This document shows positions 730-63,496 of a stretch of DNA of 64,000 nucleotides, piece after piece. The DNA lies in NCBI RefSeq assembly GCF_003991155.1, contig NZ_CP031293.1; one strand, written 5' to 3'. The stretch is from Escherichia coli (GTDB lineage Bacteria; Pseudomonadota; Gammaproteobacteria; Enterobacterales; Enterobacteriaceae). A program made the position numbers and the translations under genes. The notes beneath the pieces are model-generated. The model made no database searches. It saw only the letters and a program-made list of their open reading frames with translations, and had not been told where the DNA came from. How positions within the stretch are numbered: position 1 is the stretch's first letter; each line of letters starts with the position of its first letter.

Positions 730-747
730 AAAAACTCCTGTTCTCTT

Positions 748-2176: not shown

Positions 2177-2179
2177 TTT

Positions 2180-8372: not shown

Positions 8373-9667
8373 GCTTCCGGCTCCCGCTGTTTCTCACGCA
8401 GTACCCGGTCATAGACCTGGGCATAGACTTCGTTAAACAGCATTTCAAATCCCTGCTGGCGATCGGACGCCAGTTCTTCGTAATAATGGCTGTACATCTG
8501 CCAGGCTCCGGCGGCGTCCAGCGGCTGGCGAAGTTCATGGCTGCGGCGGTACTGCACAAAACGGCGCATCAGGCTCTGTGGTGAAAACGCATCCAGCAGC
8601 ACGCGGAGCGACTCCACAATCGCCGCCCGGTTGGCCTCTTCGTGATGGCGGATATTGCGCAGGCTTTCGCTGACGGCGGCAGGGGCCGCCAGATGTACCG
8701 GGCTTTTGCCCTCTGCAAACATCACATCAAGCGCGGTGGCGTAATCCATGTTCAGCCGCAGCGGGTTATCTTCCAGCGGGCGCAAATGTTTATCCGACAG
8801 GCTGTTACGGTGCTGTTGTAGATCGAGTAACCCTTTTATTGCCGCCTGTAGGGTTCGTCCGGCCTCTTCGAGAAAACCATCCGCATCCTGCGAGTTGCGT
8901 ACAGCCAGGGTACTACCCAGCCCACGCAGTAGCGGGGTAACAGCAAGATGGAGTTGGGCGATGTCAGTCGGATTAACGGAATCATCATGCTTCTCCTGCG
9001 GATCGGGATACACCGGAGGCAGATCCATAAACGGTTTGTCGATCACACCATCCCTGACGGGAGCCGAAGAGCGGGTTGGGACGATCCCGGAGAGAGGATC
9101 ACCCGCCACCGTCAAACTTTCTGCCTGAAGCGCCTGCAACGGATCGGCTGAAAAACTGTTGGCCACGGTATCTGCAAGCTGGTGTCGCTGGGGCATACCT
9201 GGATATGCAGGCTGGCCGTCCGTTGTCAGCAATGAGTCCGCCAGACGATCACGGTTAGTGACGATAGTTTCAGGTGCTGCCATCTGTTCGCTGTAAGTGA
9301 TCAGTTTTCCTGTGTGGATAAACACCTTCAGCGCCAGTGCCCCCAGCACGATCTCGTCCCCCTGTCGCAGACGTACCAGCCCGGCATCCAGGGCAACCGG
9401 AGCCAGGTTAATCATCAGTCCTGTACCCAGACTCTTCAGACAAAATGCGCCGTCATGCACCACCACCTGGCAGGCACGACCGGCAACGGAACCGGCCCTG
9501 TCCTGTACCGGCCAGTGGCACTCAGGCAGGTTACCGATATCCCCGCCATCAGCAGTAAAGAGGCATTTTGCGGCACGTCCGCTCTCCAGTTCATTACCGT
9601 TCATCACCTGTAATGTCATTGAGAGCCGGGAGGACTGCGTTTTTTCTTCAGCCATATGCGATTCCAT
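8369..9667 (-). CDS. tagH: FHA-domain T6SS protein (TagH-like)
   Basis: ORF 8369..9841; probable start MESHMAEEK at 9667 just after tssG stop; forkhead-associated-like N-terminal region, Pro-rich linker. Confidence 0.65.
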   Translation of the reverse strand: MESHMAEEKTQSSRLSMTLQVMNGNELESGRAAKCLFTADGGDIGNLPECHWPVQDRAGSVAGRACQVVVHDGAFCLKSLGTGLMINLAPVALDAGLVRLRQGDEIVLGALALKVFIHTGKLITYSEQMAAPETIVTNRDRLADSLLTTDGQPAYPGMPQRHQLADTVANSFSADPLQALQAESLTVAGDPLSGIVPTRSSAPVRDGVIDKPFMDLPPVYPDPQEKHDDSVNPTDIAQLHLAVTPLLRGLGSTLAVRNSQDADGFLEEAGRTLQAAIKGLLDLQQHRNSLSDKHLRPLEDNPLRLNMDYATALDVMFAEGKSPVHLAAPAAVSESLRNIRHHEEANRAAIVESLRVLLDAFSPQSLMRRFVQYRRSHELRQPLDAAGAWQMYSHYYEELASDRQQGFEMLFNEVYAQVYDRVLREKQREPEA

Positions 9668-9671
9668 AAAA

Positions 9672-10715
9672 TTAATCCCTGATGTGAAGGGTGACGGAGG
9701 GCGGCGTTTTGGGCTGACCAATAAACGCCGTGCGTCCGATGCAGGAGCGGGAACGATCACCCAGCAGCATTCCTTTTGCCTGTTCCGGAGCCAGATCCAG
9801 CCGGAGATCCCAGGCAAACTGATCGCGCAACAGAAAGGCAATAAACATGGTCAGCGCCTGGTGGTTTTCGCCTTCCGGTAAAAACGAGAGATAGCACGCC
9901 ATGGAAAGATTACTTAACCGCAGCAGAAATTTTCCGCTGCGATCAGGTACTCTGGCACCCAGCGTAAAATTAACGCCAATGACGGAGCGCCCTGGTACGT
10001 ATCCGGCGGTTTTCTTTTTAGCATTACGCACGCCCAGCCGGTTCTGCTGGTCAGGCGCAATGACCACCTTTCGTAACTGCCAGCTTTCAATACTGACATC
10101 CGGCAGATCAAAGCAGTGGCTGACCAGGTTGCACACCACATCCGGCGAGCGCCCCGGCGTTGCCAGAATTCCGGCATACGCGAGCATTTTGCTGTGGTTG
10201 ATGGCAAGCCTGTCACGCACACTCTGGTTGCCCAGCCCAACCAGCGCATACATTCGCTGTGAAAAGACATCCGTCCCACCGTTGCGAAAACAGATGTAAT
10301 AGCGGTACTTACGCCAGGCATGGTAGGCAAATTGCGTCCAGCGGTGGCTGAACAGATCAAGAAATGCTTTCAGCCCTTCTTCATTCTGTGCGGATTCCCG
10401 CGCCATCCGATCCAGGTAATAACCGGGTAGCGGAGACTGGCCGCCGGAGAAACCGAGAAATTTTGTGGTCAGGGTAAACTGCCCGGAATCCCTGCGCTCA
10501 AGCGTGCTCAGGTCGCTACAGGGAAAGGCAATACTGGCGTCAGATTTAAACAGCGCCACTTCCTTTTCTGGCTCGGTGCGCAGGGACGGATCCTGATTCG
10601 GTGCACCATATCGGCGGTACAGTGATTCCATCAGCACATAAAAATTTATCCCGCGCACATCCGGGAGTATTCCCGTTCCCTCTATATCAGGGCGTGCTGG
10701 CCCGTATGTTGCCAT
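9672..10715 (-). CDS. tssG: TssG baseplate protein
   Basis: 347 aa, overlaps tssF 3' end, conserved operon position. Confidence 0.8.
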   Translation of the reverse strand: MATYGPARPDIEGTGILPDVRGINFYVLMESLYRRYGAPNQDPSLRTEPEKEVALFKSDASIAFPCSDLSTLERRDSGQFTLTTKFLGFSGGQSPLPGYYLDRMARESAQNEEGLKAFLDLFSHRWTQFAYHAWRKYRYYICFRNGGTDVFSQRMYALVGLGNQSVRDRLAINHSKMLAYAGILATPGRSPDVVCNLVSHCFDLPDVSIESWQLRKVVIAPDQQNRLGVRNAKKKTAGYVPGRSVIGVNFTLGARVPDRSGKFLLRLSNLSMACYLSFLPEGENHQALTMFIAFLLRDQFAWDLRLDLAPEQAKGMLLGDRSRSCIGRTAFIGQPKTPPSVTLHIRD

Positions 10716-12505
10716 TCCCAGGACTCCTGACTTTCCGTGTTAATAATTTTGAGGCAGTGAAATGAGTTGATGCTGGCATAAAGGGCAAAGAAGTATGAGA
10801 GCACCGTCCCCAGGAAATAGATCTCCCCCTCACAGACAAAGGGTGCGGGGTTAATCCACAGCGTGGTGGAGAGACCGCGGACCGGTATGCCTTTAAACAG
10901 GCGATCGACGGGACGGGATTCCATTTTTTCGATGGCATCCAGCTTCTGGGAGGAAAGCCGGGCCTGCTGCGGGTGATGAATGCCTGGTAAATCAAAAGTA
11001 CGCAGTACCTGAACCAGTGCTTCCCTGTCCAGCAGCGAGAGGTAGTTCAGGTTCATGCTTGAAATCAGCGACCAGTGCATATCACCATCCGTCACCGGGT
11101 ATAACGGGCGGGTTGGCCGGGTGACATTGCTGAAGGAAGCCACTGCCGGGTTTTTATTCACGGCTTCACAGATATCACCCACATGCAGTGACGCGGGCAA
11201 CATCCGGTTGGTGCATACCAGCGAGGCCGTGAACACTTCTCCGTCCAGTAGGGCCTGCTCCGGCAGGCTGCCATCAGCATGGACAAAGGCAATGGAATGA
11301 TCCAGTCCCCGGTGAAACAGTGACGTTTTTGTGCGGTGATGCCAGTAAACGACTTCACGCTGACGGCTGTACTCGATCTGGTGCTGAAAACCCTCAAATT
11401 CAGGCCAAAGGCGATACTTTTCCCCTTTGCTGACCGTTGGAAGTTTGCTGGAAACAGATTTTATCTGAAAAATATCATAGAACTCTGGATACTGTTGGCT
11501 GGCCGTTAATGGGTACTGTGGCGCACTGTCATCGGGCCTCACGGGTTCAGAATGATGGACAAACAGGTTCACTGCTGGTGTGCAATATGGACGAAGTGAA
11601 GCCTTACGCAGCTTAACATCCACCGGAAGAGGCAGATTAAAGTGCAGTCGTAGTGTAAAAGCATGGAGCGGGAAGCCTTTCGGCAACGGTGCAGCCTCCC
11701 GCAGATGAAAGAAGAAAAAGCTCTCCGGATAACAGAAATACTCCTGAAGTACACGGTAGCCATTATGTACGTTTTTCGGCCACGGCAGCAGCGCATCCTC
11801 CCGCTCAAATCCCGCAGCCTCAAGCCACAGATCCGGCAGCGCCACACGGTGATCTCCGGCTACCAGTTCCGCATCCATCAGACGCTCACTAAACCACAGA
11901 TAGAGTTGATGGCGGGTATAATCATCCTCATTTCCCAGCCAGAAGGAGAGCTTATTCAGATCCAGTTCACCGGGAGAAACGTTTCCCTCAGTGAAAAAAT
12001 CTATCTCAATGACACCTTCTTTGAGGGTACTGGTATTCCGTACATCCCTTACCATCAGGGGTTGTAGCCAGATATCACGCGCCAGTGTGAAATAGCAGTT
12101 CGGCAGTGCGGCTTTGTTATCATCATCGGTTAACGCCCCCCGAGCATAAGTTCGCATACTGCTGCCTGTCTGCGTTTTTATCAGCTCGTCGCGGTGTACC
12201 TGGACGGATGATTTCAGTTCCTTACGGGGTTGGTATTCAATCACTGCCATTGCCGGAACCGGGCGTAAATAGTTAGGCCACAACATATTAATCAGGCTAT
12301 GCGTAAATTCCGGGAATTCATCCTCCAGCTTTTGTCGCAAACCGCCCGAGAGAAACGCAAACGCCTCCATCAGGCGTTCCACATCAGGATCACCTTCCTT
12401 TTCAGCCAGAAAGCGGGCCAGATAAGGTTTCTCCTGTGACAGCAGCTTGCCAAGCTGACGTAGATAATCAAGCTCTTCTCGATAGTAACGTTCTTCGAAG
12501 GCCAT
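10682..12505 (-). CDS. tssF: TssF baseplate protein
   Basis: ORF 10682..12577; probable start MAFEERYYREELDYLRQLG at 12505 right after tssE stop. Confidence 0.85.
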   Translation of the reverse strand: MAFEERYYREELDYLRQLGKLLSQEKPYLARFLAEKEGDPDVERLMEAFAFLSGGLRQKLEDEFPEFTHSLINMLWPNYLRPVPAMAVIEYQPRKELKSSVQVHRDELIKTQTGSSMRTYARGALTDDDNKAALPNCYFTLARDIWLQPLMVRDVRNTSTLKEGVIEIDFFTEGNVSPGELDLNKLSFWLGNEDDYTRHQLYLWFSERLMDAELVAGDHRVALPDLWLEAAGFEREDALLPWPKNVHNGYRVLQEYFCYPESFFFFHLREAAPLPKGFPLHAFTLRLHFNLPLPVDVKLRKASLRPYCTPAVNLFVHHSEPVRPDDSAPQYPLTASQQYPEFYDIFQIKSVSSKLPTVSKGEKYRLWPEFEGFQHQIEYSRQREVVYWHHRTKTSLFHRGLDHSIAFVHADGSLPEQALLDGEVFTASLVCTNRMLPASLHVGDICEAVNKNPAVASFSNVTRPTRPLYPVTDGDMHWSLISSMNLNYLSLLDREALVQVLRTFDLPGIHHPQQARLSSQKLDAIEKMESRPVDRLFKGIPVRGLSTTLWINPAPFVCEGEIYFLGTVLSYFFALYASINSFHCLKIINTESQESWEWQHTGQHALI

Positions 12506-29384: not shown

Positions 29385-30658
29385 TGCTTTTTTGTACTAA
29401 ATAATTCGCATTTTATGTTTAAAAATTGAGATATTCCTCATTACCTAAAGCTTTTTTTTATTGCTTATACATGATCAAATACTCCTTACATAATTAAGGA
29501 GAACAAAATGGAACTTAAAAAATTGATGGAACATATTTCTATTATCCCCGATTACAGACAAGCCTGGAAAGTGGAACATAAATTATCGGATATTCTACTG
29601 TTGACTATTTGTGCCGTTATTTCGGGTGCAGAAGGCTGGGAAGATATAGAGGATTTTGGGGAAACACATCTCGATTTTTTGAAGCAATATGGTGATTTTG
29701 ATAATGGTATTCCTGTTCACGATACCATTGCCAGAGTTGTATCCTGTATCAGTCCTGCAAAATTTCACGAGTGCTTTATTAACTGGATGCGTGACTGCCA
29801 TTCTTCAGATGATAAAGACGTCATTGCAATTGATGGAAAAACACTCCGGCATTCTTATGACAAGAGTCGCCGCAAGGGTGCGATTCATGTCATTAGTGCG
29901 TTCTCAACAATGCACAGTCTGGTCATCGGACAGATCAGGACGGATGAGAAATCCAATGAAATTACAGCTATCCCTGAACTTCTTAACATGCTGGATATTA
30001 AAGGAAAAATCATCACAACTGATGCGATGGGTTGCCAGAAAGATATTGCAGAGAAGATACAAAAACAGGGCGGTGATTATTTATTCGCTGTAAAAGGAAA
30101 TCAGGGGCTGCTTAATAAAGCCTTTGAGGAAAAATTTCCACTGAAAGAATTAAATAATCCAGAGCATGACAGTTACGCCATTAGTGAAAAGAGTCACGGC
30201 AGAGAAGAAATCCGTCTTCATATTGTTTGCGATGTCCCTGATGAACTTATTGATTTCACGTTTGAATGGAAAGGACTGAAGAAATTATGCGTGGCAGTCT
30301 CCTTTCGGTCAATAATAGCAGAACAAAAGAAAGAGCCAGAAATGACGGTCAGATATTATATCAGTTCTGCTGATTTAACCGCAGAGAAGTTCGCCACAGC
30401 AATCCGAAACCACTGGCACGTGGAGAATAAGCTGCACTGGCGTCTGGACGTGGTAATGAATGAAGACGACTGCAAAATAAGAAGAGGAAACGCAGCAGAA
30501 TTATTTTCAGGGATACGGCACATTGCTATTAATATTTTGACGAATGATAAGGTATTCAAGGCAGGGTTAAGACGTAAGATGCGAAAAGCAGCCATGGACA
30601 GAAACTATCTCGCGTCAGTCCTTGCGGGGAGCGGGCTTTCGTAATCTTGCCCTGGGGT
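29385..30658 (+). mobile_element. ISAs1-family (H-repeat) insertion sequence, copy 1
   Basis: Near-identical ~120 bp leader and 3' end shared with copy 2; contains intact transposase ORF; boundaries approximate. Confidence 0.7.
29508..30644 (+). CDS. ISAs1-family transposase (H-repeat-associated protein)
   Basis: 378 aa, recognisable H-rpt/ISAs1 transposase sequence ([18 protein letters not shown]...). Confidence 0.85.
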
Positions 30659-30813
30659 TTTGGGCTAACGAAATGGAAAATTTAACATAAATTTAATTCA
30701 TGCTCTTGCCCTGATTTCGGGCTGACATAATAGTGAAGATTTTAACACAAATTTAATTCATGTCCTCATCCCAGTATAGACTTTAATTTTATTTTTTTGA
30801 TAAGGTACTACAT

Positions 30814-31647
30814 ATGGCTTTCGTTTCTGCGTTAGTTAATTTGCGTTATGATTTAAACAAATATATTGTAGAGTTACGACGCATTTCAAATCTTGCCGCG
30901 ACATTTCTTATGGAAGATGATTTTATTAAGAATTTCTATCTTAATGAAGTTGAAATAAGCATAAATAATTATAATTTTAGATTCAATAACGAGCGAAACC
31001 CATTCAAGCAAAGGGAAATAGTTTTTGAACTTAAAGAAGAAGTTGAGTTGGAAAAAAAAGAATATGATATATTAAGAATGAAAGATCATGTTACTTATAT
31101 GGTAACTGATATGTTTGAAGAACAAGGCGTGTTAAAATATGTAAAAATATTTGGAGGGGTTGCTACAGGAGGAATAGAACTTTTCACTGCCTATGGGTAT
31201 TATCAATTGGGTAAAACATTACACCTTAGAAGATTACGTGGGATAGCAATTGTTTTTGCTTCTTATGGCGTTGATAATATATGGGAGTCAGTCTCTCCTT
31301 TGATTTTTGAAGAAGCGAATGCAGGGCCTCTTAGACGTGTTATTCGGGGAATTGCTGGTGAGTTTGGAATAAGTGAAGATGATTCTGATTTAGGGTATAG
31401 TTTTGTTGAATTTTCATTGTCCTTATATAATACTTTTAATGCAAGAAAATTGTTTCCGAATGAAAATAGGTTAGTTATAGGTGTGGGAAGAAAAAGGCCA
31501 GGGACTGGTAGGCTTTTTAATAATGTAAGCTGGGATTATGCATCTAAATGGTCAAAAATGAATACAAATATGAAGATTTGGAATTTAGGGTATAGCGCTT
31601 ATAAAGCCAAACTGGAATTTTATGATGAGAAATATAAATTTAAATAA
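30814..31647 (+). CDS. Hypothetical protein, AT-rich, between the two ISAs1 copies
   Basis: 277 aa ORF with two hydrophobic segments (YVKIFGGVATGGIELFTAYGYY; GIAIVFASYGV); no family recognised. Confidence 0.4.
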   Translation: MAFVSALVNLRYDLNKYIVELRRISNLAATFLMEDDFIKNFYLNEVEISINNYNFRFNNERNPFKQREIVFELKEEVELEKKEYDILRMKDHVTYMVTDMFEEQGVLKYVKIFGGVATGGIELFTAYGYYQLGKTLHLRRLRGIAIVFASYGVDNIWESVSPLIFEEANAGPLRRVIRGIAGEFGISEDDSDLGYSFVEFSLSLYNTFNARKLFPNENRLVIGVGRKRPGTGRLFNNVSWDYASKWSKMNTNMKIWNLGYSAYKAKLEFYDEKYKFK

Positions 31648-31723
31648 TATTTCACATTACGTACTTTTAAAAAAGTATAATTATTAGCCGGTTAATTCAA
31701 TTATATAACACAGCCTCATTGCG

Positions 31724-31966
31724 CTAAAATAAAATTCGTATACCAAGTTTTATCAGCTTTAACTGAGTGATGATCTTTACATTATTGTTTTTTGCATCTG
31801 AGCATAAAATCATGACACTAAATATTGAAAACACAGCAGACATAAAGAAAAAAGCGGCCCCTCTTTCCAAGAGGATTCCGAGAATGAAAGCAAAAAATGC
31901 CACTGCCGGAAACCATAGCGACAAAGCGTCTTTTGCAGAGTCATATATCACATCTATTAGTGTCAA
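31724..31966 (-). CDS. Hypothetical small membrane protein
   Basis: 80 aa ORF with two predicted transmembrane helices; coding status uncertain. Confidence 0.25.
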   Translation of the reverse strand: MTLIDVIYDSAKDALSLWFPAVAFFAFILGILLERGAAFFFMSAVFSIFSVMILCSDAKNNNVKIITQLKLIKLGIRILF

Positions 31967-32169
31967 ATCTTTAGTTAAATTTGGATGAAGAGTTTTTTAA
32001 TATTTTTAAAATTATGCCTAAGACTGAATAACTCGTTATATTTAAAACCGTTAGTAATAATTTTACGCCTTACTTTTTCCAGTTTCATTTATTATCACTC
32101 CTTGAGATCTTTAAATTATTATAGTGTATTTTTTAAGTGAGTCAATGCATCAGAGAAAGATCATCAGAA

Positions 32170-33445
32170 GAACTCTTTTTGTACTAAATAATTCGCATTT
32201 TATGTTTAAAAATTGAGATATTCCTCATTGTCTGAAGCTGTTTTTTATTGCTTATACATGATCAAATACTCCTTACATAATTAAGGAGAACAAAATGGAA
32301 CTTAAAAAATTGATGGAACATATTTCTATTATTCCCGATTACAGACAAGTCTGGAAAGTGGAACATAAATTGTCTGATATTCTACTGCTGACTATTTGTG
32401 CCGTTATTTCGGGTGCAGAAGGTTGGGAAGATATAGAGGATTTTGGGGAAACACATCTCGATTTTTTAAAACAATACGGTGATTTTGAAAATGGTATTCC
32501 TGTTCACGATACCATTGCCAGAGTTGTATCCTGTATCAGTCCTGCAAAATTTCACGAGTGCTTTATTAACTGGATGCGTGACTGCCATTCTTCAGATGAT
32601 AAAGACGTCATCGTAATTGATGGAAAAACACTCTGGCATTATTATGACAAGAGTCGCCGCAAGGGAGCGATTCATGTCATTAGTGCGTTCTCAACAATGC
32701 ACAGTCTGGTCATCGGACAGATCAAGACGGATGAGAAATCCAATGAGATTACAGCTATCCCAGAACTTCTTAACATGCTGGATATTAAAGGAAAAATCAT
32801 CACAACTGATGCGATGGGTTGCCAGAAAGATATTGCAGAGAAGATACAAAACAGGGAGGTGATTATTTATTCGCTGTAAAAGGAAACCAGGGGCGGCTAA
32901 ATAAAGCCTTCGAGGAAAAATTTCCGCTGAAAGAATTAAATAATCCAGAGCATGACAGTTACGCAATGAGTGAAAAGAGTCACGGCAGAGAAGAAATCCG
33001 TCTTCACATTGTTTGCGATGTCCCTGATGAACTTATTGATTTCACGTTTGAATGGAAAGGTCTGAAGAAATTATGCGTGGCAGTCTCCTTTCGGTCAATA
33101 ATAGCAGAACAAAAGAAAGAGCCAGAAATGACGGTCAGATATTATATCAGTTCTGCTGATTTAACCGCAGAGAAGTTCGCCACAGCAATCCGAAACCACT
33201 GGCACGTGGAGAATAAGCTGCACTGGCGTCTGGACGTGGTAATGAATGAAGACGACTGCAAAATAAGAAGAGGAAACGCCGCAGAATTATTTTCAGGGAT
33301 ACGGCACATCGCTATTAATATTTTAACGAATGATAAGGTATTCAAGGCAGGGTTAAGACGTAAGATGCGAAAAGCTGCCATGGACAGAAACTATCTCGCG
33401 TCAGTCCTTGCGGGGAGCGGGCTTTCGTAATCTTTCCCTGGAGTG
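32170..33445 (+). mobile_element. ISAs1-family insertion sequence, copy 2 (transposase frameshifted)
   Basis: Same leader and ends as copy 1; direct orientation; boundaries approximate. Confidence 0.7.
32295..33430 (+). pseudogene. ISAs1-family transposase, frameshifted
   Basis: Split into ORFs 32295..32879 and 32819..33430; 1-bp deletion in an A-run near 32850 relative to copy 1 (acaaaaacagggcgg vs acaaaacagggagg). Confidence 0.8.
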
Positions 33446-35448
33446 AGTATTTTGATTTACTGAAATATCTTATTAGAAACGGATATATTGATGAAACATA
33501 TAATGACTATATAACATATTTCTATGAAAACAGTTTAAACCGGAGTGACAAAGCTTTTTTAAGAAGTATTTCCGATAAAAAAGGGAAAGATTTTTCTTAT
33601 GCTTTGAATAACCCCTCATTAATAGCAAGTCGATTACAACTTTATGATTATAGCCAGCAAGAAACGTTAAATTTTGATTTGTTGGATCACCTCTTGGATT
33701 CATTGACTCAACATACAACACAACTTAAGACATTTATATCTCAACTGAAAAAAGATAAAAATCTCCGATTTATTAAAGAGTACATGGACACTGAACGTAA
33801 TATTTCAAGGTTAATCCCTTTATTAAATCAGCAGTGGAGTGATTTTTTTCAATTGATGTTGAATGAAAAATTATATACACAACAACAAATAAAATCATAT
33901 TCCCTGGACAGTCTTTATTTTTCAAATCAAGACACTTTATTAAAAGTCAACCATAATGGCTGTCTATCACAGTATATATCTGAACATAAAACATATCTAA
34001 ATATAGAACAGCCTCAAATTCAAATGCTAATAGATAAGTTTAAATGTTTAGATATTTTATTTAAGAATTTATCATATAACAACTCAGAAGCATCTTTATT
34101 TTCAGCCGTATATAAAGAGTCACTTTATGAACTTAATTATCATAATTTAAAAGAGCTTATTTGCTATGAATACAAATGTGCAGACGAAGATAAAATCAAA
34201 CACCAAAACTTCACCATATTACTAAGCAATGCATCAACATATCTTTATAAAAAGATAGATAAAAATATCGAAAAATATATAGCTATAGTTCTCGAAAATT
34301 GTGAGAATAGTATAGCTGATGCTGAAAATGCAGTTGTTGTAATTATTAATAAATCAGGAATTGATGAGGAAATAAAAAAATCATACATAGCAAAACTCAA
34401 TAATAGATTGAGTGACTTAAGTAAAATAGATGAATCAAATATGTGGTCTTACTTATTAGACCAACGAAAAATAGAGTATACTGCTGAGAATATTATTTTT
34501 TATTTTTCTCAGCATAGTGAATTAGATGAAACAATAATTAAATTTATAGATAGCGAAAAATCTATTACACTAGACTATTATAGTGGGTTTACAGACGATA
34601 TCAAAGAGAGATTTTTCGACAAGGTCATCATTTGTGAACAAATTAGCGATAACAAATACTTCGAGATATTATCTTCATTAGACTATTGCTATGAATCATT
34701 TGATATATCCGGTTTGCAGGATGCGAAGATAAAAGTACTTATCGACACTAATATAATTCGAATGTCCATTCTGAATCTAGAGTTTCTAAGAACTACATAT
34801 CCTAATAACCTTATGCATTATATAAATAAAAATATAATCGACTATATTAAACTACAGACAGGTGAATCTGCTGTTAGTGACACAAATGAAATTTTGAACG
34901 TCTTAGAATTAGATATTGATGATTCACAAAAAGAAAAGCTATCAATGATAGTAGATACTCCAATCTCTATTCAAAATAATAAATACTCAACTCTCTTTAA
35001 GAAACACATCCTCACAAATAAATTAGATATAAATGACATCCCTTATCTCATAGAAAATTATGGCACATTAGTAGCACTTCAATCGACAATTCTAATCATT
35101 TTAAGTGGTCACGTCAATGAGGTAAAAGATCATGCTGATAAATTATCGATTAACTTGTTAGAGGTCTTAATAAAGGATGCTCATTTTATCCATGATGATA
35201 ATGTAGAATTATTTGTAAAGCAGATAACTAACATGAATAAAATACAAATCAAGAAGTTTCTAAAACTGATTAATTCTTCTGAGTTAACTATCTTATTAGA
35301 TAAAAAATTGGCATCGATAAAAATAAGCTCGTCTAATGAAAAAATACTTAAGAGTTTCATAACAAATGGATTAATAAAATCCTACAGCCAAAGTACTGAA
35401 GATCCTGAATCATACATAATAGATTTCCCTGAGGAGTTTCTTGATTAA
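33439..35448 (+). CDS. AT-rich hypothetical protein, probably 5'-truncated at the ISAs1 end
   Basis: Frame open from the IS junction (33439) to 35448 (669 codons); no in-frame ATG in the first ~110 codons; Asn/Lys/Ile/Tyr-rich; no family recognised. Confidence 0.5.
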   Translation, partial: WSEYFDLLKYLIRNGYIDETYNDYITYFYENSLNRSDKAFLRSISDKKGKDFSYALNNPSLIASRLQLYDYSQQETLNFDLLDHLLDSLTQHTTQLKTFISQLKKDKNLRFIKEYMDTERNISRLIPLLNQQWSDFFQLMLNEKLYTQQQIKSYSLDSLYFSNQDTLLKVNHNGCLSQYISEHKTYLNIEQPQIQMLIDKFKCLDILFKNLSYNNSEASLFSAVYKESLYELNYHNLKELICYEYKCADEDKIKHQNFTILLSNASTYLYKKIDKNIEKYIAIVLENCENSIADAENAVVVIINKSGIDEEIKKSYIAKLNNRLSDLSKIDESNMWSYLLDQRKIEYTAENIIFYFSQHSELDETIIKFIDSEKSITLDYYSGFTDDIKERFFDKVIICEQISDNKYFEILSSLDYCYESFDISGLQDAKIKVLIDTNIIRMSILNLEFLRTTYPNNLMHYINKNIIDYIKLQTGESAVSDTNEILNVLELDIDDSQKEKLSMIVDTPISIQNNKYSTLFKKHILTNKLDINDIPYLIENYGTLVALQSTILIILSGHVNEVKDHADKLSINLLEVLIKDAHFIHDDNVELFVKQITNMNKIQIKKFLKLINSSELTILLDKKLASIKISSSNEKILKSFITNGLIKSYSQSTEDPESYIIDFPEEFLD

Positions 35449-35493
35449 TGCTAATCTTTAACAAGATGTCATAAATACACTTCAACAAAGAAA

Positions 35494-35526
35494 AAACCAC
35501 CAGCATCTCAATTGCTGGTGGTTTTT
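35494..35526 (+). terminator. Rho-independent terminator
   Basis: AAAAAACCACCAGCA-loop-TGCTGGTGGTTTTTC hairpin with T-tract. Confidence 0.6.
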
Positions 35527-35582
35527 CTTCTCCTAATTATCAGGAATCACCTCACGTAGCGGTCGGATGCAGTAGAAAAATT

Positions 35583-35676
35583 GGTGGTCATTCTGGTGGT
35601 CTTGACAATCTCGATTTTTTGTTTTAGCTTACCAATCAGCCAGTTAATGGCTACGGCGATCCCAGTCAGAGGAGCC
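35583..35676 (+). repeat. Island-end repeat copy 1, ending in the tRNA-Asn 3'-terminal 15-mer
   Basis: ~94 bp near-identical to 48837..48930 and to the reverse complement of 63231..63325; ends CCAGTCAGAGGAGCC, matching the tRNA-Asn acceptor/T-arm 3' end. Confidence 0.8.
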
Positions 35677-35682
35677 CAATTT

Positions 35683-38008: not shown

Positions 38009-38084
38009 TCCTCTGTAGTTCAGTCGGTAGAACGGCGGACTGTTAATCCGTATGTCACTGGTTCGAGTCCAGTCAGAGGAGCCA
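38009..38084 (+). tRNA. asnV: tRNA-Asn (anticodon GTT)
   Basis: 76 nt TCCTCTGTAGTTCAGTCGGTAGAACGGCGGACTGTTAATCCGTATGTCACTGGTTCGAGTCCAGTCAGAGGAGCCA; cloverleaf consistent, anticodon GTT at 38042..38044; gene symbol inferred from position next to nac. Confidence 0.9.
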
Positions 38085-38250
38085 AATTTTAGTCTTGAGA
38101 CATCTCTATAAGTCTCAGGATAGTTAAAAAACAAGAACTTATCTTTACCCGGTTGTCTCGCAAGAGGCTGCTGGGTTTCTTGACATCCATAGTTTTTAGG
38201 GGCCTAATCAGGGGCCTCACGGTTCGGTGAGCAAACGGAGCCCCCACGCT

Positions 38251-39513
38251 ATGGCATTAACAGACACCGCTATTCGCAAGACTAAACCCTCTGACAAACC
38301 CTTCAAAATGACGGACAGTTCTGGACTGTACCTGTTGATCAAACCTAACGGCTCAAAACTCTGGTATATGAAGTACCGCATCGACGGCAAAGAGAAGAAA
38401 CTGGCCTTTGGCCCCTACCCGGAGATCTCCCTGTTGCAGGCTCGCCGCCTGCGCGAAACAGCACGCAATAACATTCATGCAGGCGTCGATCCGGCTGCGG
38501 TGAAGCAAACCGAGAAACAGAAGAGGAAAAACGGGCAGACGTTCAGCCAGATCGCCATCAACTGGCATAGCGAGCATAAACGCTGGTCTGAGCATTACGC
38601 GAAAACGGTTATGCGCAGGCTGGAAATGTACGTTTTCCCGGATATCGGGGATCGCCTTATCGAGGAGATCGAAACGGAGGATTTGTTATTCACGTTGCGC
38701 AAGGTAGAGAGTAAAGGCTTTCTGGAAATCACCGCGCGGCTGAAAAACTACGTCACCGATATCATGCACTACGCGATGAAAAAGAAACTGCTCAAAGCGA
38801 ACCCGGCGCTGTATCTGGACGGTGAGTTTGCCGCGCCAGAAACCAGTCACTACCCGGCCCTGTCGCTGGACAAATTGCCTGAGCTTTTAACCCGGACGGA
38901 TAGCTACTGCGGCAGGCTGCTGACAAAATACGCGCTTAAGCTGTCGCTGATTTTTTTTGTGCGCTCCAGCGAACTACGCTTTGCGCGCTGGAGTGAGATC
39001 GACTGGCAGCAGAAGTTATGGATAATCCCGGAAGAGCGCGAACAGATCGAAAACGTGCGCTTCTCTTACCGGGGGTCGAAAATGAAAATCCAGCACATTG
39101 TGCCGCTGTCGGATCAGGCGATTGCGATACTGAAACAGATCGAGGCCCTCTCCGGGCATCTGGCCTTTATTTTTCCCGGCGAATACGACCAGGACAAGTG
39201 CATGAGCGACAACACCGTCAACAAGGCGCTGCGCGTGATGGGTTACGACACCAAAAAGGATATCTGCGGGCATGGCTTCCGGGCAATGGCCTGTAGTGCG
39301 CTGAGCGAATCGGGATTATGGAGCAAAGAAGCCATTGAAAAGCAGATGAGCCACCAGGAAAGAAACAGCGTCCGTGCTGCCTATATTCACAAGGCTGAAT
39401 ATCTGGAGGAACGGATCGAGATGATGCAGTGGTGGTCAGATTATCTTGATGCAAACAGTGACGGGTATGTCTCGGCTTACCAGTATGCCCGCCGCCTAAA
39501 ACAGGCGTCGTAA
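38251..39513 (+). CDS. int: P4-like tyrosine integrase
   Basis: ORF 38227..39513; probable start MALTDTAIRKTKP at 38251; phage-integrase family features; lies directly 3' of the tRNA. Confidence 0.85.
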   Translation: MALTDTAIRKTKPSDKPFKMTDSSGLYLLIKPNGSKLWYMKYRIDGKEKKLAFGPYPEISLLQARRLRETARNNIHAGVDPAAVKQTEKQKRKNGQTFSQIAINWHSEHKRWSEHYAKTVMRRLEMYVFPDIGDRLIEEIETEDLLFTLRKVESKGFLEITARLKNYVTDIMHYAMKKKLLKANPALYLDGEFAAPETSHYPALSLDKLPELLTRTDSYCGRLLTKYALKLSLIFFVRSSELRFARWSEIDWQQKLWIIPEEREQIENVRFSYRGSKMKIQHIVPLSDQAIAILKQIEALSGHLAFIFPGEYDQDKCMSDNTVNKALRVMGYDTKKDICGHGFRAMACSALSESGLWSKEAIEKQMSHQERNSVRAAYIHKAEYLEERIEMMQWWSDYLDANSDGYVSAYQYARRLKQAS

Positions 39514-41794: not shown

Positions 41795-44700
41795 CTATAA
41801 ACGACCAAAAGAGACAATTTCCCCTGTATCTACCGCAACATCAATATATCTTCCGTTCTTTCTATATCTCCACACATTTTCAGTATAACCAGAAACTTTG
41901 GTTGGTTTTATTCTTCTCAAGTTCTCAGAAAAAACCTTAGCTTTATTTAGATATTGCTCTACCGTTTCTGCACCAACTTCACGACCATGTTTTCTGAAGT
42001 GCTCCAGTAATGACTCTGCCGGAGTATCCCAACTTCCTTTACTCCATAGTTTTTTACAATTTACTTCTTGCAGGAATGCAAATAATGCCGATAAACCTAA
42101 AGGGTCAATATAACTAAATGGGTTCTGTACATATGAATATGGATTTAATCCCCCAAGTAACCCAATGGGATCTGCCGAAATATACTGCGCCGTATCAGGA
42201 TCATAGTACCTGAACCGGTTATAGTACAGTCCTGATTCCGTATCTTCGTACTGCCCCGGAAAACGCAGGCGGCAGTCAGGCGCATCATCCTTGTTTCTGC
42301 CTTCTTCCCGGCCCCAAAGTTGCTGTTTTCCCCGCCAGACAATCGTGCCGTCTTCGGTCAGCAACTCCTGGACACGACCGACCGTATCCGTCACCGCGTA
42401 ATGCAGCAAGCCTTTCTCATAACGTGCCAGCGGTGTAAAACTTCCCGGTTCATATATCCAGCGAATGGCATTTTCATATTCTGGTTTGCCATCAGTACCA
42501 ACAGGAATTTCTTCGGTTAACTGATCGCCATTCCAGTGGAAATCCATTCCGGACTTATCACGGTTGGTACACCGTTTGCTGATGCGCCTGCCAAACGGGT
42601 CGTATTTATACTCCCAGCGTTCCCCCTCCGGCGTTTCAAGCCCGGTAAGCTGACTTCTGGCATCCCAGCGATAGCGCCATTCGAGCGGACGATAGCCGCC
42701 TTTATCGACCAGTTTCTCCACCAGGCGACCATTAGCATCGTACGTCCAGGTAATATTGTGCTCATTCACCACCCGGACAAATTTTCCCTCTTCCGGCTTT
42801 CCTGTGTCCGGGTTGATGCGGTGTGTCTGATGCCGCCAGCCTTTGTGCTCTCTGGAAACAACTCTTCCATGCCGCAACTGCTGGTGTGTCTCGCTTTCCA
42901 GCACCTCATTTACCCATGTCTGGCGGCGGGCAATATTCAGGTTTTTGTCATAAGTGAACAGTTCCTCACACAGCGGAAACTCCCGGGAATCGCCCGTCCA
43001 GGTGGCATGGCTTACCTGGTCGTTAACCGTCATATTGTTGAAGGCTGATCCCCGCAGCGAGTCTGATATTACCGTCAGGTTGTACGCCTTGTCATACAGC
43101 CACTGGCGCTCCAGGCTTTTGTTCCGTTCGTACGGCCCGGCCTGGTGGTCCCCGGCATTCTGCTTCGCTGGCATCCCTGTGCGCGTGTATGCCAGCGTCT
43201 GGTAAAACCCGGCCTCGCTCCGCCTGGACGTTTCCAGGCCGCGCAGGTCGTGCTCAAATGTCAGCGGGGCATGGTCCGCTATCTGCCAGGATGCCAGATG
43301 CCCCATCAGGTTTCGGGTAAAGCGTTCTGTGATACCTGCTGTGGTGCGCTGTGTGACCGTATCCAGGTCAGGGTCGTAACGGTATTCTGTGCGCCTGCCG
43401 TTCAGCGTTTCGGCAACAATCTGGTTTGCATCGTTATATTCAAATGTAACGGTGGCATCGTCATTCTTCGCTTCCACCAGACGACGCTGCGTGTCGTAAC
43501 GAAATGTGGTGACACTCAGAGTTCGGTCACTGTTGCCCTGTGTGACTTCCTCGTCCGTCACCTGGTCATTCACGTTGTAGCGGCGGTTAAGGTGAGTGCC
43601 GTCCGGGAAGCTGGTGCGAATACAACGCCCGACGGCATCGTAGGTGTAGTTCAGCGTGCGTCCGGTGAAGTCTGTTTCTGCTACAAGCTGCCCGGCTTTA
43701 TCATATTTAAGACGGTAGCGCTCGCCTTCGGCGTTGGTAATTTCGGTCAGGCGGGTCAGTTTATCGTAGCGACACGCCAGCCGCTCGCCGTCAGGACGCA
43801 CCAGAGCCGTGAGCAGATCGAATGCACCGTATTCGTAACGGGTGGTTTTGCCCTCGCCATCGGTAAAGCTTTCCGGTAGCTTTTCGCTGTTCTGGCGCAT
43901 CAGTTCCCGCACGCCGTCCGGGCGCTGGATTTCTTCCACGCAGCCCTGTGGCCCGGCGTGGATTTTGCTGTGACGAAACTGCGTGGTGAAGCCAAGTGGG
44001 TCTTTCACACTTAACAGTCGGCCCAGCATATCCTGTTCGGTCTGCGTGATGCCGCCGTCTGGCGCAACAGTCTCGCGCACCTGATGCAGGGCGTCATGAC
44101 TCCAGCACCAGGTGGCCCCGCCCGGCAGAATCCGTGCAAGCAAATCACCCTGTTCACTGTAGCTGAACTGCTGTTTCCGGCCCTGAGGGTCGATCAGGCT
44201 GATTATGCTGCCCCGATCATCATAGACCCATTGCCACGCCTGATTATCAGTTGTCGACAGCCGGGTTAACTGACCGGTATCATTATACTCGTAGAACAGG
44301 CCATAGCCGCCCGGCAGGGCAACCTGGATAACCTCACCTTCCCGGTTATAGCGGTACGCCGTGGTACGCCCCAGCGCATCGGTGCGTGACTGAAGCCGGG
44401 CATTATTCCAGACGGTAATTTCTTCCCGCCCCAGCGGATCGATACAGCGGGTGACCAGGCCGTCCTCGTTATACCAGTAACGGGTTTCGCCCCCTTCTGC
44501 ATCCAGGTAGGTGGTGCATTTTTCATCATCGTTATAGATAAAGCGGTCATCGAAGTAGCCTTCCGTTGACAGTGTGCTGACAGCGCGCCCCTGCGGATCA
44601 TAGCGGATATCCACACAGGTTTTGTCCGTATCCCGCCAGCGGGTCATAAAGCCTTCTGATGTGTACTCATGCCATAAATGCGAGAACTGGAAGGTATCGC

Positions 44701-45985
44701 ATTCTGCCATAAAACCATTGTCATCATACTGGCAGGTCACAAGACGCTGACGCTGCGGCGTTGCCAGGTCAATGCTCATCAGCTGAGCCTGTTGCCAGGC
44801 AAGGGCGAGCATATAGCCATCGCTGTGACGGATTTCTGTCAGCAGACCATCAGTGCGGATAAAATCAATCCGGTTGCCATAATTATCGAAGACAGCGGAC
44901 AACCGCCAGACGCCATTGCCTGCCGGGGAAAAGAGCTGTGTCTGCTGCGAACGGCGATCGAAAACGCTCACGCCATCGCGCAGGCTTCCCGTCAGCCGGT
45001 AGTACGCCTGGCGTGAGTTCACTGCACCGCGAAAGATACCGTCCTGCGGCAGGCGGTAATACAGTACAACGCCTTCACTGTCGGTAAAATGCAGCCGGTT
45101 ACCCTGTATCGTCAGCGACGCTGACCACTCATCGGTCCATTTCGGGCCGAAAATCCCGGTCCCCCTGGCCTGTGAGCGGTAAAAACGCGAGAGCGTCAGC
45201 GGCAGGGAACCCGGCAGCGAAAGCACGCTGAAATGCTGGAGAAAATCGCCGGTGCCAATATCCACAGGCTCACCGGGTTTGGTGCACAACTGAGCACCAA
45301 CACATTTACTCTGATCACCAGTTCCCTCGGTTTCACCTTTAATATTTGCGCCATCCTGGCCTTCGGGTATGACATCATCCGCCAACTTTTCTGCGTCACT
45401 GACAACATCGTCTGCTTTGTTTACCTTCAGCAGATCGGCGGTGAATTTCCCCGCCGCTGCTTCTTCTCGTGCCAGTTTACTGGCAGTCCGCATCGCTCTA
45501 AGACCCACGAACCCGCCTCGGGCCAGACCATATCCTCCCAGCGCCAGCGAGCCATGGTCATAAATCATGCCGCCAATTTCCTGGTTCCTGTTGCTCATTT
45601 CCAGACGGTACATGTCCAGATTGAAATCTCCCGCATGCTCCCGGAGATCTCCGCCCATGTTGTACATATCCTCGCCAATATCATCCATGCCCATCGCAGA
45701 AAGCATGGCGCCGTTCATCTGCATTTCTCCGGCATACTGCATGGTGGCCCCCTGGCCTATCATCGTCGCCATATCCGGGAACTGGTTCCAGAATGCTTTG
45801 GCAGCACCAATAGCCAAATCAAGCTGGACTGCCGAAGCTTCAATTTTCGCCCGACTTTCATCCATCTGGATCATCAACATCATGTCCCAGATACTTTGCT
45901 CTTCTTTTGTTTCTGGCTCTGGCGCAGGGTCAGCTTCGCTGGCGGAAATAGCGGCTTCAGGGGGCTGACCGATAATTAAACCCGT
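41795..45985 (-). CDS. rhs: Rhs repeat effector 2, 5'-truncated by the IS3-family element
   Basis: ORF 41795..45883; frame stays open upstream to the IS end (~45985) and encodes ...GLIIGQPPEAAISASEADPAPEPETKEE, matching the linker after the PAAR domain of Rhs1; YD repeats; DPIGLLGGLNPYSYVQNPFSYIDPLGL then a unique C-terminus. Confidence 0.85.
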   Translation of the reverse strand, partial: TGLIIGQPPEAAISASEADPAPEPETKEEQSIWDMMLMIQMDESRAKIEASAVQLDLAIGAAKAFWNQFPDMATMIGQGATMQYAGEMQMNGAMLSAMGMDDIGEDMYNMGGDLREHAGDFNLDMYRLEMSNRNQEIGGMIYDHGSLALGGYGLARGGFVGLRAMRTASKLAREEAAAGKFTADLLKVNKADDVVSDAEKLADDVIPEGQDGANIKGETEGTGDQSKCVGAQLCTKPGEPVDIGTGDFLQHFSVLSLPGSLPLTLSRFYRSQARGTGIFGPKWTDEWSASLTIQGNRLHFTDSEGVVLYYRLPQDGIFRGAVNSRQAYYRLTGSLRDGVSVFDRRSQQTQLFSPAGNGVWRLSAVFDNYGNRIDFIRTDGLLTEIRHSDGYMLALAWQQAQLMSIDLATPQRQRLVTCQYDDNGFMAECDTFQFSHLWHEYTSEGFMTRWRDTDKTCVDIRYDPQGRAVSTLSTEGYFDDRFIYNDDEKCTTYLDAEGGETRYWYNEDGLVTRCIDPLGREEITVWNNARLQSRTDALGRTTAYRYNREGEVIQVALPGGYGLFYEYNDTGQLTRLSTTDNQAWQWVYDDRGSIISLIDPQGRKQQFSYSEQGDLLARILPGGATWCWSHDALHQVRETVAPDGGITQTEQDMLGRLLSVKDPLGFTTQFRHSKIHAGPQGCVEEIQRPDGVRELMRQNSEKLPESFTDGEGKTTRYEYGAFDLLTALVRPDGERLACRYDKLTRLTEITNAEGERYRLKYDKAGQLVAETDFTGRTLNYTYDAVGRCIRTSFPDGTHLNRRYNVNDQVTDEEVTQGNSDRTLSVTTFRYDTQRRLVEAKNDDATVTFEYNDANQIVAETLNGRRTEYRYDPDLDTVTQRTTAGITERFTRNLMGHLASWQIADHAPLTFEHDLRGLETSRRSEAGFYQTLAYTRTGMPAKQNAGDHQAGPYERNKSLERQWLYDKAYNLTVISDSLRGSAFNNMTVNDQVSHATWTGDSREFPLCEELFTYDKNLNIARRQTWVNEVLESETHQQLRHGRVVSREHKGWRHQTHRINPDTGKPEEGKFVRVVNEHNITWTYDANGRLVEKLVDKGGYRPLEWRYRWDARSQLTGLETPEGERWEYKYDPFGRRISKRCTNRDKSGMDFHWNGDQLTEEIPVGTDGKPEYENAIRWIYEPGSFTPLARYEKGLLHYAVTDTVGRVQELLTEDGTIVWRGKQQLWGREEGRNKDDAPDCRLRFPGQYEDTESGLYYNRFRYYDPDTAQYISADPIGLLGGLNPYSYVQNPFSYIDPLGLSALFAFLQEVNCKKLWSKGSWDTPAESLLEHFRKHGREVGAETVEQYLNKAKVFSENLRRIKPTKVSGYTENVWRYRKNGRYIDVAVDTGEIVSFGRL

Positions 45986-48717: not shown

Positions 48718-48836
48718 CTAATACCAAAATAACTCTATGATTAAAAAGGCTGATATATATGCTGGAAGTAGACAGACTACCGGAAACAGTACGACGGTGA
48801 CAGGGTGAACCAAAGGGTTAGGCGCATTTTAAAAAG

Positions 48837-48930
48837 GTGGTCATTCTGGTGGTCTTGACAAACTCGATTTTTTGTTTTAGCTTATCAATCAGCCTGTTAA
48901 AGGCTAAGGCGATCCCAGTCAGAGGAGCAA
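48837..48930 (+). repeat. Island-end repeat copy 2 with tRNA-Asn 3'-end 14-mer (probable attR of the asnV island)
   Basis: Near-identical to 35583..35676; ends CCAGTCAGAGGAGC (one mismatch to the tRNA 3' end after that). Confidence 0.8.
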
Positions 48931-49243
48931 AATTCTAAAAATTCGCTTTTTTAGCGCAATATCACTGACCTTAGTTGAGCATTGCTTTTTAATGGATAGC
49001 GGGTTTTTGACATCTTAAGCGCCCTCGACCTTTATGGTTGAGGGCGTTTTGCTATGAACGCCATCACCATTTTCCCCTCGATTATAAAACTTGAGTAATT
49101 CAGTAGTCTCCCCTCTTGCAACTCACACCCAAAACTGCTTAACGAAAAGTTATTAATTTTCAATCATATTGCTATCAGGATTTATATTTTTTCGCTGTGC
49201 TAGAAAGGGCGCATTTATGTTAGCTCGTTCAGGGAAGGTAAGC

Positions 49244-57223
<7,980 letters not shown>

Positions 57224-63130: not shown

Positions 63131-63230
63131 AATCAAAAAACCCGGTCACTTTTTTACAAGGTAACCGGGTAAAAATGATTTTATTTTTTAACTGTCTTGA
63201 GACTCATAGAGATGTCTCAAAACTAAAATT

Positions 63231-63325
63231 TGGCTCCTCTGACTGGGATCGCCGTAGCCTTTAACAGGCTGATTGATAAGCTAAAACAAAAAATCGAGTT
63301 TGTCAAGACCACCAGACTGACCACC
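63231..63325 (-). repeat. Island-end repeat copy 3 with truncated tRNA-Asn 3' end (pseudo-tRNA / attR)
   Basis: Reverse complement matches copies 1 and 2; 63231..63246 is the tRNA 3' 16-mer; it is followed on the minus strand by the same flank that follows asnV (aattttagt[c/t]ttgagacatctc). Confidence 0.8.
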
Positions 63326-63496
63326 ATTTTTATTAGCGTATATTTTCGCTATGGGCATACTGTCTATTCATTTAACACATGCACGTCTTATTAGAGCGAA
63401 AAGTGTACATTTCAAAAATGCTTTAATAGGATTTCTAGCTATGATGCTAAAGTATCACTACTTTTATGGATATAAACTAGACAGGAATGATGTGTT

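Follow-up and report, generated by a model that had tools for sequence, protein, structure and literature searches.

The closest described system to the locus examined here is Tmn, whose recognition as a defense system traces to a 2020 Science paper, as cited in PMC13001434. In the alleles tested, full-length Tmn is a membrane-anchored decamer with cytosolic arms that bind T2 RIIB, a phage trigger (PMC13001434). Its ATPase, which depends on Walker A, then brings about Mg2+ export, plasmolysis, and ATP collapse (PMC13001434; Wu et al. 2026 preprint), and mutations in Walker A and in the NTPase domain abolish defense (PMC13001434). Distal-arm fragments of Tmn-25 can be expressed and retain weak binding to the RIIB trigger (PMC13001434). 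Septu type I has been reported to synergize with Tmn, and the published phylogeny of Tmn distinguishes clades Ia-IX. Here, we analyzed a 64,000-nt stretch of an Escherichia coli genome (contig NZ_CP031293.1; hereafter the window), in which an AT-rich open frame is very probably the 3' remnant of a tmn gene, formed recently and most likely non-functional.

The frame lies on the + strand at 33439-35448 and translates into 669 sense codons followed by one terminal stop. Its first Met is codon 116 (nt 33784), such that the frame is start-less for 55 codons until a TTG (33604) and for 115 until an ATG (33784). GC content is 27.8% in the frame vs 48.9% in the window as a whole, 54.4% in the T6SS block, and 47.4% in cbl-nac, and the translation is rich in Ile, Leu, Ser, Lys, Asn, and Asp. 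The initial annotation had described a 669-codon frame open from an IS junction, with no in-frame ATG in its first ~110 codons, a biased residue composition, and an AT-richness unlike the flanking T6SS and core genes; all of this was borne out. Such a low GC content would fit an origin in low-GC bacteria. At this composition, stops are expected about every 11.5 codons and the probability of 669 open codons arising by chance is ~4e-27, while ORFs in the other five frames reach 83 codons at most. Thus, the frame did not arise by chance and is a genuine coding remnant.

From which gene does it derive? Direct family scans of the remnant alone against Pfam, NCBIfam, and PADLOC gave no significant match, and it was identified solely through its homologues and an intact E. 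coli allele. There are 271 homologues, many with E~1e-125, and most are ~1000-1160 aa long and carry Pfam PF20693. The PF20693-bearing proteins, which include Bacillus and Enterobacter members, align over 97-100% of the remnant at 37-44% identity. The intact E. coli allele is 99.5% identical and encodes 1242 aa, of which the window frame represents residues 575-1242. An exact-sequence look-up of P0001, whose cluster comprises 825 sequences, matched no contig. The intact allele is called by the PADLOC Tmn model PDLC02220 (E=5.2e-61) and in several genomes bears the PGAP name 'YobI family P-loop NTPase'. Its Pfam YobI-ATPase match spans the full model (1-363/363, E=3.7e-113) at residues 53-423, and this domain contains Walker A (73-80), Walker B (267-275), and one strong hydrophobic segment (~199-221), with membrane segments called at a Kyte-Doolittle cut-off of 1.6 in a 19-residue window. 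Reading the sequence by eye, we also noticed a second, weaker hydrophobic candidate at ~152-172, below that cut-off.

Judged from these comparisons, the AT-rich frame is what survives of an anti-phage gene already known, Tmn/YobI, which encodes a membrane ATPase, and represents its back half. The initial annotation had recognized no family, and here it can be corrected: PF20693 homologues and the PADLOC call on the intact allele identify the family as Tmn/YobI. Its other suggestions fared better. The idea of a horizontally acquired defense gene proved right, the intact protein being a Tmn encoded between Mokosh and Septu, and the suspected missing N-terminal NTPase corresponds to the YobI-ATPase domain upstream of the truncation at residue 575. 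Moreover, homologues are plentiful, and neither the 1242-aa allele nor the shorter distant relatives share the start position of the window frame.

In genomes with the intact allele, the asnU defense island runs from integrases through Mokosh II MkoC, Tmn, and Septu PtuAB to cbl. Two att-like repeats flank the Septu (ptuAB) cassette in these genomes, and the cassette is absent in the window. The remnant itself (33442-35448, +) is 99.5% identical over 2007 nt to positions 9001-11007 of the intact-allele locus L002; it is collinear with the 2007 nt at the 3' end of the intact allele, and this homology starts exactly at the end of an ISEc1 element. A terminator-like hairpin of 15 pairs (35491-35527), 43 nt past the tmn stop, is also present downstream of intact tmn in L002. 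Further downstream, an att-like repeat (35576-35680, +) that includes a 15-nt copy of the tRNA-Asn 3' end (35662-35676) forms the right edge of the island.

On its upstream side, the remnant meets the second of two copies of ISEc1, an ISAs1-family element. Copy 2 (32176-33441, +) has a frameshifted transposase (ORFs 32295-32879 and 32819-33430; PGAP 'ISAs1 family transposase, frameshifted'), and a search for its terminal inverted repeats (seed 7) yielded no convincing pair, nor was a target duplication identified. With 97% identity and one gap, it matches copy 1 (29389-30658, +), whose 378-aa transposase (29508-30644) is intact and which may have been a partner in recombination. The AT-rich segment between the two copies (30659-32175, +) holds a DUF4225 gene (30814-31647) and no tmn sequence, and the left flank of copy 2 is accordingly non-tmn. 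Across thousands of E. coli copies in >5,000 genomes, ISEc1 homology ends at query 300-301, equivalent to window 33440/33441, and homology to intact tmn in L002 begins at window 33440. The junction is therefore located within a 2-nt GG overlap (33440-33441), in agreement with the earlier claim that the 5' end of the frame abuts an ISAs1 copy. Because the transposase stop (33428-33430) and the remnant are in different frames, the two do not form a fusion protein.

Is this a simple insertion? The initial annotation attributed the missing N-terminus to IS insertion. The loss is real, but a plain insertion does not account for it, as the 5' half is found neither across the IS nor elsewhere. We sought the 5' 1,722 nt of tmn in the window and in the 30 genomes with the truncated allele and found it absent everywhere, and a simple IS insertion with both halves kept was rejected on these grounds. 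Additionally, these 30 carriers have no separately encoded YobI NTPase half at >=~85% nucleotide identity. Mokosh II, the Tmn front half, Septu I, and the integrases are all absent from the truncated lineage. By this comparison of gene content, an IS-associated deletion or replacement removed mkoC and the integrases as well.

Both alleles are rare. Among 5,426 complete E. coli genomes, 14 carry the intact 1242-aa allele and 30 carry the truncated one, with an identical junction in all 30; the tmn 5' 1,722 nt is restricted to the 14. Strains 94-3024 and SY038 are among those with the intact allele, and 2016C-3878 and AR Bank #0349 among those with the truncated one. The junction recurs in 30 complete genomes that were assembled independently, which rules out an assembly artefact. 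The inter-IS segment is confined to the same 30 genomes, and the junction, this segment, and the Rhs/T6SS configuration are common to them at >=99.9% identity, which points to a single truncation event that was inherited clonally. Members of this group diverge beyond window position 47252, and the left boundary falls outside the window. The frame is open throughout its 669 codons, free of frameshifts and stops, in 30/30 carriers. Relative to L002 9001-11007, the remnant has 10 differences, 7 nonsynonymous and 3 synonymous, and, with the protein P0002 as outgroup, at least 4 of the 7 nonsynonymous ones read as derived in the remnant. This pattern is compatible with relaxed constraint, with counts too small for dN/dS.

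The history of the locus can be summarized as follows. In the ancestor, a tRNA-Asn-linked defense island encoded a full Tmn of 1242 aa at its right end, adjoining cbl. In one E. coli lineage, ISEc1 came to sit at tmn codon 574/575, and everything upstream of codon 575 has been lost, comprising tmn codons 1-574, the Mokosh gene mkoC, and the integrases. The vacated space is now taken up by ISEc1, the DUF4225 gene, the second ISEc1, Rhs orphan genes, and the T6SS cluster. The remnant would retain the distal solenoid arm only.

What does the remnant still encode? With the residues before 575, it has lost the entire YobI-ATPase domain, including both Walker motifs and the membrane segment, and the greater part of the proximal arm. 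It keeps the last portion of the proximal arm, followed by the distal alpha-solenoid arm and, at the C-terminus, a small alpha/beta element. No 19-residue window in the remnant reaches the membrane-segment cut-off (maximum 1.51). The AlphaFold2 model (pLDDT 89.3) is an elongated all-alpha solenoid of 43 helices with a terminal beta-hairpin. A Foldseek search of this model against the PDB returned no match at E<=1e-3 (TM-scores 0.1-0.24), and the best matches were generic HEAT/ARM alpha-solenoids (CAND1, karyopherins, beta-catenin), a likeness of architecture and not of demonstrated homology. With regard to the features of Tmn, the helical C-terminal arms are present, and the YobI-ATPase domain with its Walker motifs and the two NTPase-inserted TM helices are absent. 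The locus is thus best regarded as a fragment of a Tmn member and not as a functional member. The remaining distal arm is the proposed phage-sensor part. Lacking an ATPase, a membrane anchor, an oligomerization hub, a promoter of its own, and a start codon, the remnant would be incapable of Tmn defense, and its intact frame presumably reflects the recency of the event rather than selection.

Some observations run against a dead gene. The frame is fully open in 30 genomes, and PGAP accepts a 'hypothetical protein' CDS of 554 aa (WP_223718429.1; 33784-35448, +; locus 9485-11149) that opens at the first in-frame ATG. A transcript could arise by read-through from the IS or from a chance AT-rich promoter. 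By analogy with the weakly binding distal-arm fragments of another Tmn, the remnant may also keep some residual binding activity. The strongest competing explanation builds on these points: translation from an internal start, either TTG 33604 or ATG 33784, would yield a soluble distal-arm protein that has its own function, perhaps as a decoy or sponge for a phage trigger or as a dominant-negative partner of an incoming Tmn. The confident AlphaFold2 model suggests that such a solenoid could fold autonomously, and arm-only fragments of Tmn-25 have sufficient stability for co-IP. However, a promoter scan found 18 promoter-like sites vs 14.5 +/- 3.9 in shuffled sequence, which is no excess, and the Shine-Dalgarno context of ATG 33784 is weak (aaagagtacATG). 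Moreover, the distal arm alone binds RIIB weakly and strong binding requires both arms. Because the 30 copies are near-identical, their conservation is uninformative on selection. We also considered homologues of ~715-785 aa without PF20693 as a natural stand-alone C-terminal protein and rejected this for the two inspected. P0040 corresponds to the downstream portion of a gene that a frameshift in an A-run has split, and the 418-aa YobI-ATPase ORF stands directly before it; P0008 arose by a separate truncation near residue 530 and has upstream stops and an adjacent, unrelated chimeric fragment. The inspected C-terminal-only Tmn ORFs therefore represent no conserved stand-alone family, and we assign a low probability to an own-function protein.

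Orphan Rhs C-terminal tips are thought to serve as recombining silent cassettes. The remnant occupies the att-proximal edge of the tRNA-Asn hotspot, with orphan Rhs fragments in an array and ISEc1 (H-repeat) elements beside it, and Tmn specificity reportedly resides in the variable arms. By extension, the remnant could be a silent reservoir of sensor-arm sequence that recombines into Tmn genes arriving at the same tRNA-Asn site. However, there is no sign of mosaic Tmn alleles, and a single allele type (99.5% identical) is seen among the 5,426 genomes. The plasmid-borne E. coli Tmn has no detectable similarity to this region, making exchange with the common Tmn type implausible. We give the silent-cassette idea a very faint chance. 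Taken more broadly, a distal-arm fragment that is expressed and active alone, whether as a soluble trigger-binding decoy or modulator or as a sensor cassette recombining with incoming Tmn at the Asn-tRNA hotspot in the manner of orphan Rhs tips, is decidedly improbable.

Finally, it is next to negligible in probability that the ORF is a complete stand-alone gene with a natural 5' end near the IS by chance, or that the junction is artefactual: the PGAP CDS call is the one point in favor of the former, but the intact allele runs 574 codons further upstream with identity uninterrupted at the boundary and the window frame is start-less at its beginning, and the assemblies sharing the junction come from different laboratories.

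The preferred reading, a dead tmn remnant, has practical value for annotation. WP_223718429.1, present in ~30 complete E. coli genomes, merits the label of a truncated tmn pseudogene. C-terminal Tmn fragments of this kind escape Pfam, NCBIfam, and PADLOC because the models recognize the N-terminal NTPase only. The locus is also a clear case of defense-island erosion at the Asn-tRNA hotspot near cbl.

How does this locus compare with known systems? The intact allele resembles Tmn in its full YobI-ATPase domain with Walker A/B and a hydrophobic insertion, its single-gene organization, its length of ~1240 aa, its helical C-terminal region, and its place in a defense island with Septu type I adjacent. 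The window copy differs in that residues 1-574 are gone, and with them all that ATP hydrolysis, membrane anchoring, and hub assembly require. The intact allele aligns with the tested plasmid-type E. coli Tmn at ~26% identity over residues 25-624 only, and in the distal arm there is no detectable similarity. To our knowledge, no member of this tmn allele group has been tested experimentally. With respect to B. subtilis YobI/PF20693, homologues covering the whole remnant carry PF20693, whereas the remnant itself contains no part of it. KAP-family NTPases (F-plasmid PifA) and STAND/Avs proteins likewise combine a P-loop NTPase with a helical-repeat sensor of a phage protein but belong to NTPase families other than that of Tmn, from which they are set apart here by absent Pfam, NCBIfam, and PADLOC matches only. 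A further parallel is with IS-truncated defense genes and pseudogene remnants in tRNA-linked islands. An IS-truncated tmn remnant is an ordinary finding of an already known kind that raises no new biological question, and nothing about the present case is unusual among such remnants: it shares with them a boundary at an IS terminus, the loss of island genes, a clonal distribution, and the label 'hypothetical protein'.

The AT-rich frame at 33439-35448 (+) translates as 669 sense codons followed by a single stop. As the initial annotation stated, it has no ATG in the first ~110 codons: an in-frame ATG first occurs at codon 116 (nt 33784), and among alternative starts a TTG at 33604 comes earliest. 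A sequence of such base composition should contain a stop roughly once per 11.5 codons, the chance of 669 open codons is ~4e-27, and the longest opening in the other frames of the interval is 83 codons. Therefore, the frame is a real coding sequence. Its G+C content is 27.8%, compared with 48.9% for the whole window, 54.4% for the upstream T6SS block, and 47.4% for cbl-nac, and the low GC that had been said to set it apart from flanking T6SS and core genes is thus borne out.

Judged by its homologues, the window locus represents part of a Tmn/YobI family gene, and that family is already known. By itself, the remnant has no match in NCBIfam, PADLOC, or Pfam. A homologue search with it recovered 271 proteins, mostly of 1000-1160 aa and one of them named "YobI family P-loop NTPase." For most, the alignment spans 97-100% of the remnant with 36-44% identity (E about 1e-125), and Pfam PF20693 (YobI-ATPase) lies in the N-terminal region missing from the window. 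The 2007-nt remnant is present in 44 of 5,426 complete E. coli genomes, in 30 at 99.9-100% identity and in 14 at 99.5%. The latter 14 encode an intact tmn CDS of 3,729 nt and 1242 aa, which PGAP calls "YobI family P-loop NTPase" in several records; the first 1,722 nt of this gene were found in those 14 genomes only, and in neither the other 30 nor the window. The remnant corresponds to residues 575-1242 of the intact protein, so the 3' 54% of tmn is retained. The intact protein contains YobI-ATPase at residues 53-423 (full-length model match, E=3.7e-113), with Walker A (GPYSAGKS, 73-80) and Walker B (VIVFEDIDR, 267-275) motifs and a strongly hydrophobic segment at ~199-221, and PADLOC calls it Tmn (E=5.2e-61). 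Thus, the orthologous intact allele has the NTPase and membrane segment that the remnant lacks because those parts were deleted. The proposal of a truncated accessory gene, and the suspicion that an N-terminal NTPase was missing, were both correct.

Where was the 5' half lost? Upstream there are two copies of ISEc1 (ISAs1-family): copy 1 at 29389-30658 (+) encodes an intact 378-aa transposase, and copy 2 at 32176-33441 (+), 97% identical to it, has a single gap that frameshifts the transposase. With a junction-spanning query, ISEc1 matches in >5,000 E. coli genomes end at query 300-301 (window 33440-33441), and homology to intact tmn starts at window 33440. These boundaries place the junction to a 2-nt GG overlap, with the ORF directly abutting the IS as first described. 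The copy 2 transposase stop (33428-33430) is in a different frame from the remnant, and therefore no fusion protein is encoded. A search of copy 2 for terminal inverted repeats found none that were convincing, and its left flank is unrelated to tmn. Since the 5' half of tmn is missing beyond the IS, the loss reflects an IS-associated deletion or replacement; the initial annotation was right to place the loss of the N-terminus at the IS, but not to attribute it to plain insertion. The 1.5-kb inter-IS segment is confined, among complete E. coli genomes, to the 30 that carry truncated tmn, and the Rhs configuration is present in exactly the same 30, which argues for a single event passed down one lineage. 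An AT-rich 277-aa DUF4225 gene (30814-31647, +), flanked by the two ISEc1 copies and downstream of an Rhs orphan/imm11 array, may be an Rhs-associated orphan module.

In SY038 and 94-3024, intact tmn lies in an island beside the tRNA-Asn downstream of yeeO (asnU), in the order two tyrosine integrases, MkoC (1197 aa, Mokosh type II, PADLOC E=5.5e-92), Tmn, convergent PtuB/PtuA (Septu), and cbl-nac. The PADLOC call and this position between Mokosh and Septu genes support the earlier suggestion of a horizontally acquired defence gene. At one intact-allele locus (L002, from NZ_CM185151.1), the three defence systems are adjacent over L002 3613-14641, and a second such locus has an identical layout. 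Two ~100-nt att-like repeats (L002 11150-11239 and 14925-15055) flank the Septu cassette in the intact-allele genomes, and the cassette is absent from the window lineage. To the left of tmn in the window are ISEc1, the DUF4225 gene, the second ISEc1, orphan Rhs fragments, and the T6SS cluster. To the right are a native terminator-like hairpin (35491-35527) and an att-like repeat (35576-35680, +), which includes a 15-nt copy of the tRNA-Asn 3' end (35662-35676) and leads directly into cbl. There is nothing unusual in the truncation of a defence gene by an IS within a tRNA-linked island.

The window has two further att-like copies, at 48830-48956 (+) and 63226-63333 (-). At least two of the three (35662, +; 63246, -) end in the 15-nt sequence CCAGTCAGAGGAGCC, the true tRNA-Asn (38009-38084) has the same ending, and the repeats mark edges of islands at Asn-tRNA sites. 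A second island, at the tRNA-Asn after nac (38227-39513 onward, +), carries a P4-type integrase, a RelE/ParE toxin-antitoxin pair, an Rhs core protein of 1362 aa accompanied by orphan tips (minus strand, 41795-45883), an IS3 copy, and a DUF2169 fragment; a T6SS-effector region thus appears to have been split by IS3. The window matches NZ_CP041996.1 at 100% identity over 1-33481 and at 99.99% onward to 47252, the end of an IS3 copy, after which it diverges from both NZ_CP041996.1 and NZ_CP029747.1. Past this point, the window contains a 2684-aa ORF (49169-57223) and further ORFs that, by position and size, appear to be GT9, shiA, amn, and yeeN. This block lies between asnT and asnW in an intact-allele genome, and NZ_CP041996.1 and NZ_CP029747.1 have integrase remnants, asnW-yeeO-asnU, and ldtA instead. 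Thus, large Asn-tRNA island/IS3 rearrangements vary within the 30-genome group. About 20 kb upstream of the window, a SIR2-family gene and a TIR-domain gene in a tRNA-Ser island by mtfA (2822-4886 of the NZ_CP041996.1 region) are probably a further defence system in the same hotspot region.

Does the remnant retain a function? It has neither the ATPase, membrane anchor, and hub nor the bulk of the proximal arm, and a promoter and start codon of its own are also missing. Within and around it, promoter-like sites number 18, no enrichment over shuffled sequence (14.5 +/- 3.9), and its internal ATG has a weak ribosome-binding context. For these reasons, we consider it very probably a non-functional pseudogene whose open frame reflects recency. 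Because the 30 copies hardly differ, nothing about selection can be read from their conservation. The remnant differs from the intact allele by 10 substitutions, 7 of them nonsynonymous and at least 4 of these derived on the remnant side as judged against an 80%-identical protein (P0002), a pattern compatible with relaxed constraint in counts too small to test. Given the same promoter and ribosome-binding results, expression as a soluble arm fragment with a decoy or dominant-negative role seems unlikely. By analogy with the neighbouring Rhs orphan tips, the remnant might be a silent cassette. This is highly improbable, since a single tmn allele type was seen in E. coli chromosomes, and the common plasmid-borne Tmn is only ~26% identical to the intact allele over residues 25-624, with nothing detectable in the distal arm. 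On this comparison, the intact-allele lineage has diverged from the plasmid-type Tmn on which experiments were done. We know of no experimental test of this lineage.

The ORF is neither a natural stand-alone gene nor an artefact of assembly: the intact allele is longer, and 30 complete genomes have the same junction. Nor do the two short homologues without PF20693 that were inspected, P0040 and P0008, support a natural C-terminal-only Tmn family. P0040 represents the portion of a gene that follows a frameshift in an A-run; a 418-aa YobI-ATPase ORF lies 14 nt upstream. In gut metagenome contigs (L007, 5940-6000), this homologue is split into the 418-aa ORF and a 783-aa arm ORF at a homopolymer stretch (A7/A6/T5). 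Nine contigs from several samples share the split, which may be a genuine frameshift, possibly phase-variable, or a sequencing error that recurs. P0008 was truncated independently: it begins at ~residue 530, 45 residues upstream of the breakpoint in E. coli, and has stop codons upstream (metagenome contig L010, 4860-8160). On this contig, by smpB, a chimeric ORF of AAA_21 C-terminal and restriction-endonuclease-like pieces precedes the remnant, another case of Tmn decay in an island.

The pseudogene reading corrects an annotation: WP_223718429.1, "hypothetical protein," is truncated Tmn. It also brings a caution, as Tmn C-terminal fragments go undetected by current defence-system HMMs.

Tmn is a single-protein defence system described in a 2026 preprint (PMC13001434), which credits its first description to Gao et al. 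2020. It forms a membrane-anchored decamer with an essential NTPase hub, as defence is lost in Walker A mutants and in several mutants of the NTPase domain (PMC13001434). An AlphaFold2 model of the remnant, built with a 40-sequence alignment, has a mean pLDDT of 89.3 and forms an elongated all-alpha solenoid of 43 helices with a small terminal beta-hairpin. Foldseek against the PDB gave no match at E<=1e-3, and the weak top matches were generic HEAT/ARM solenoids such as CAND1, karyopherins, and beta-catenin. The predicted solenoid agrees with the ARM-like and HEAT-like repeats described for the Tmn distal arm (PMC13001434). Tmn's cytosolic arms, proximal and distal, together bind phage T2 RIIB, and the fragments 604-C and 812-C, which contain the distal arm alone and to which the remnant is equivalent, gave weak RIIB recovery (PMC13001434). 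Finally, Tmn and Septu type I, reported there to be functionally synergistic (PMC13001434), are physical neighbours in the intact-allele island.
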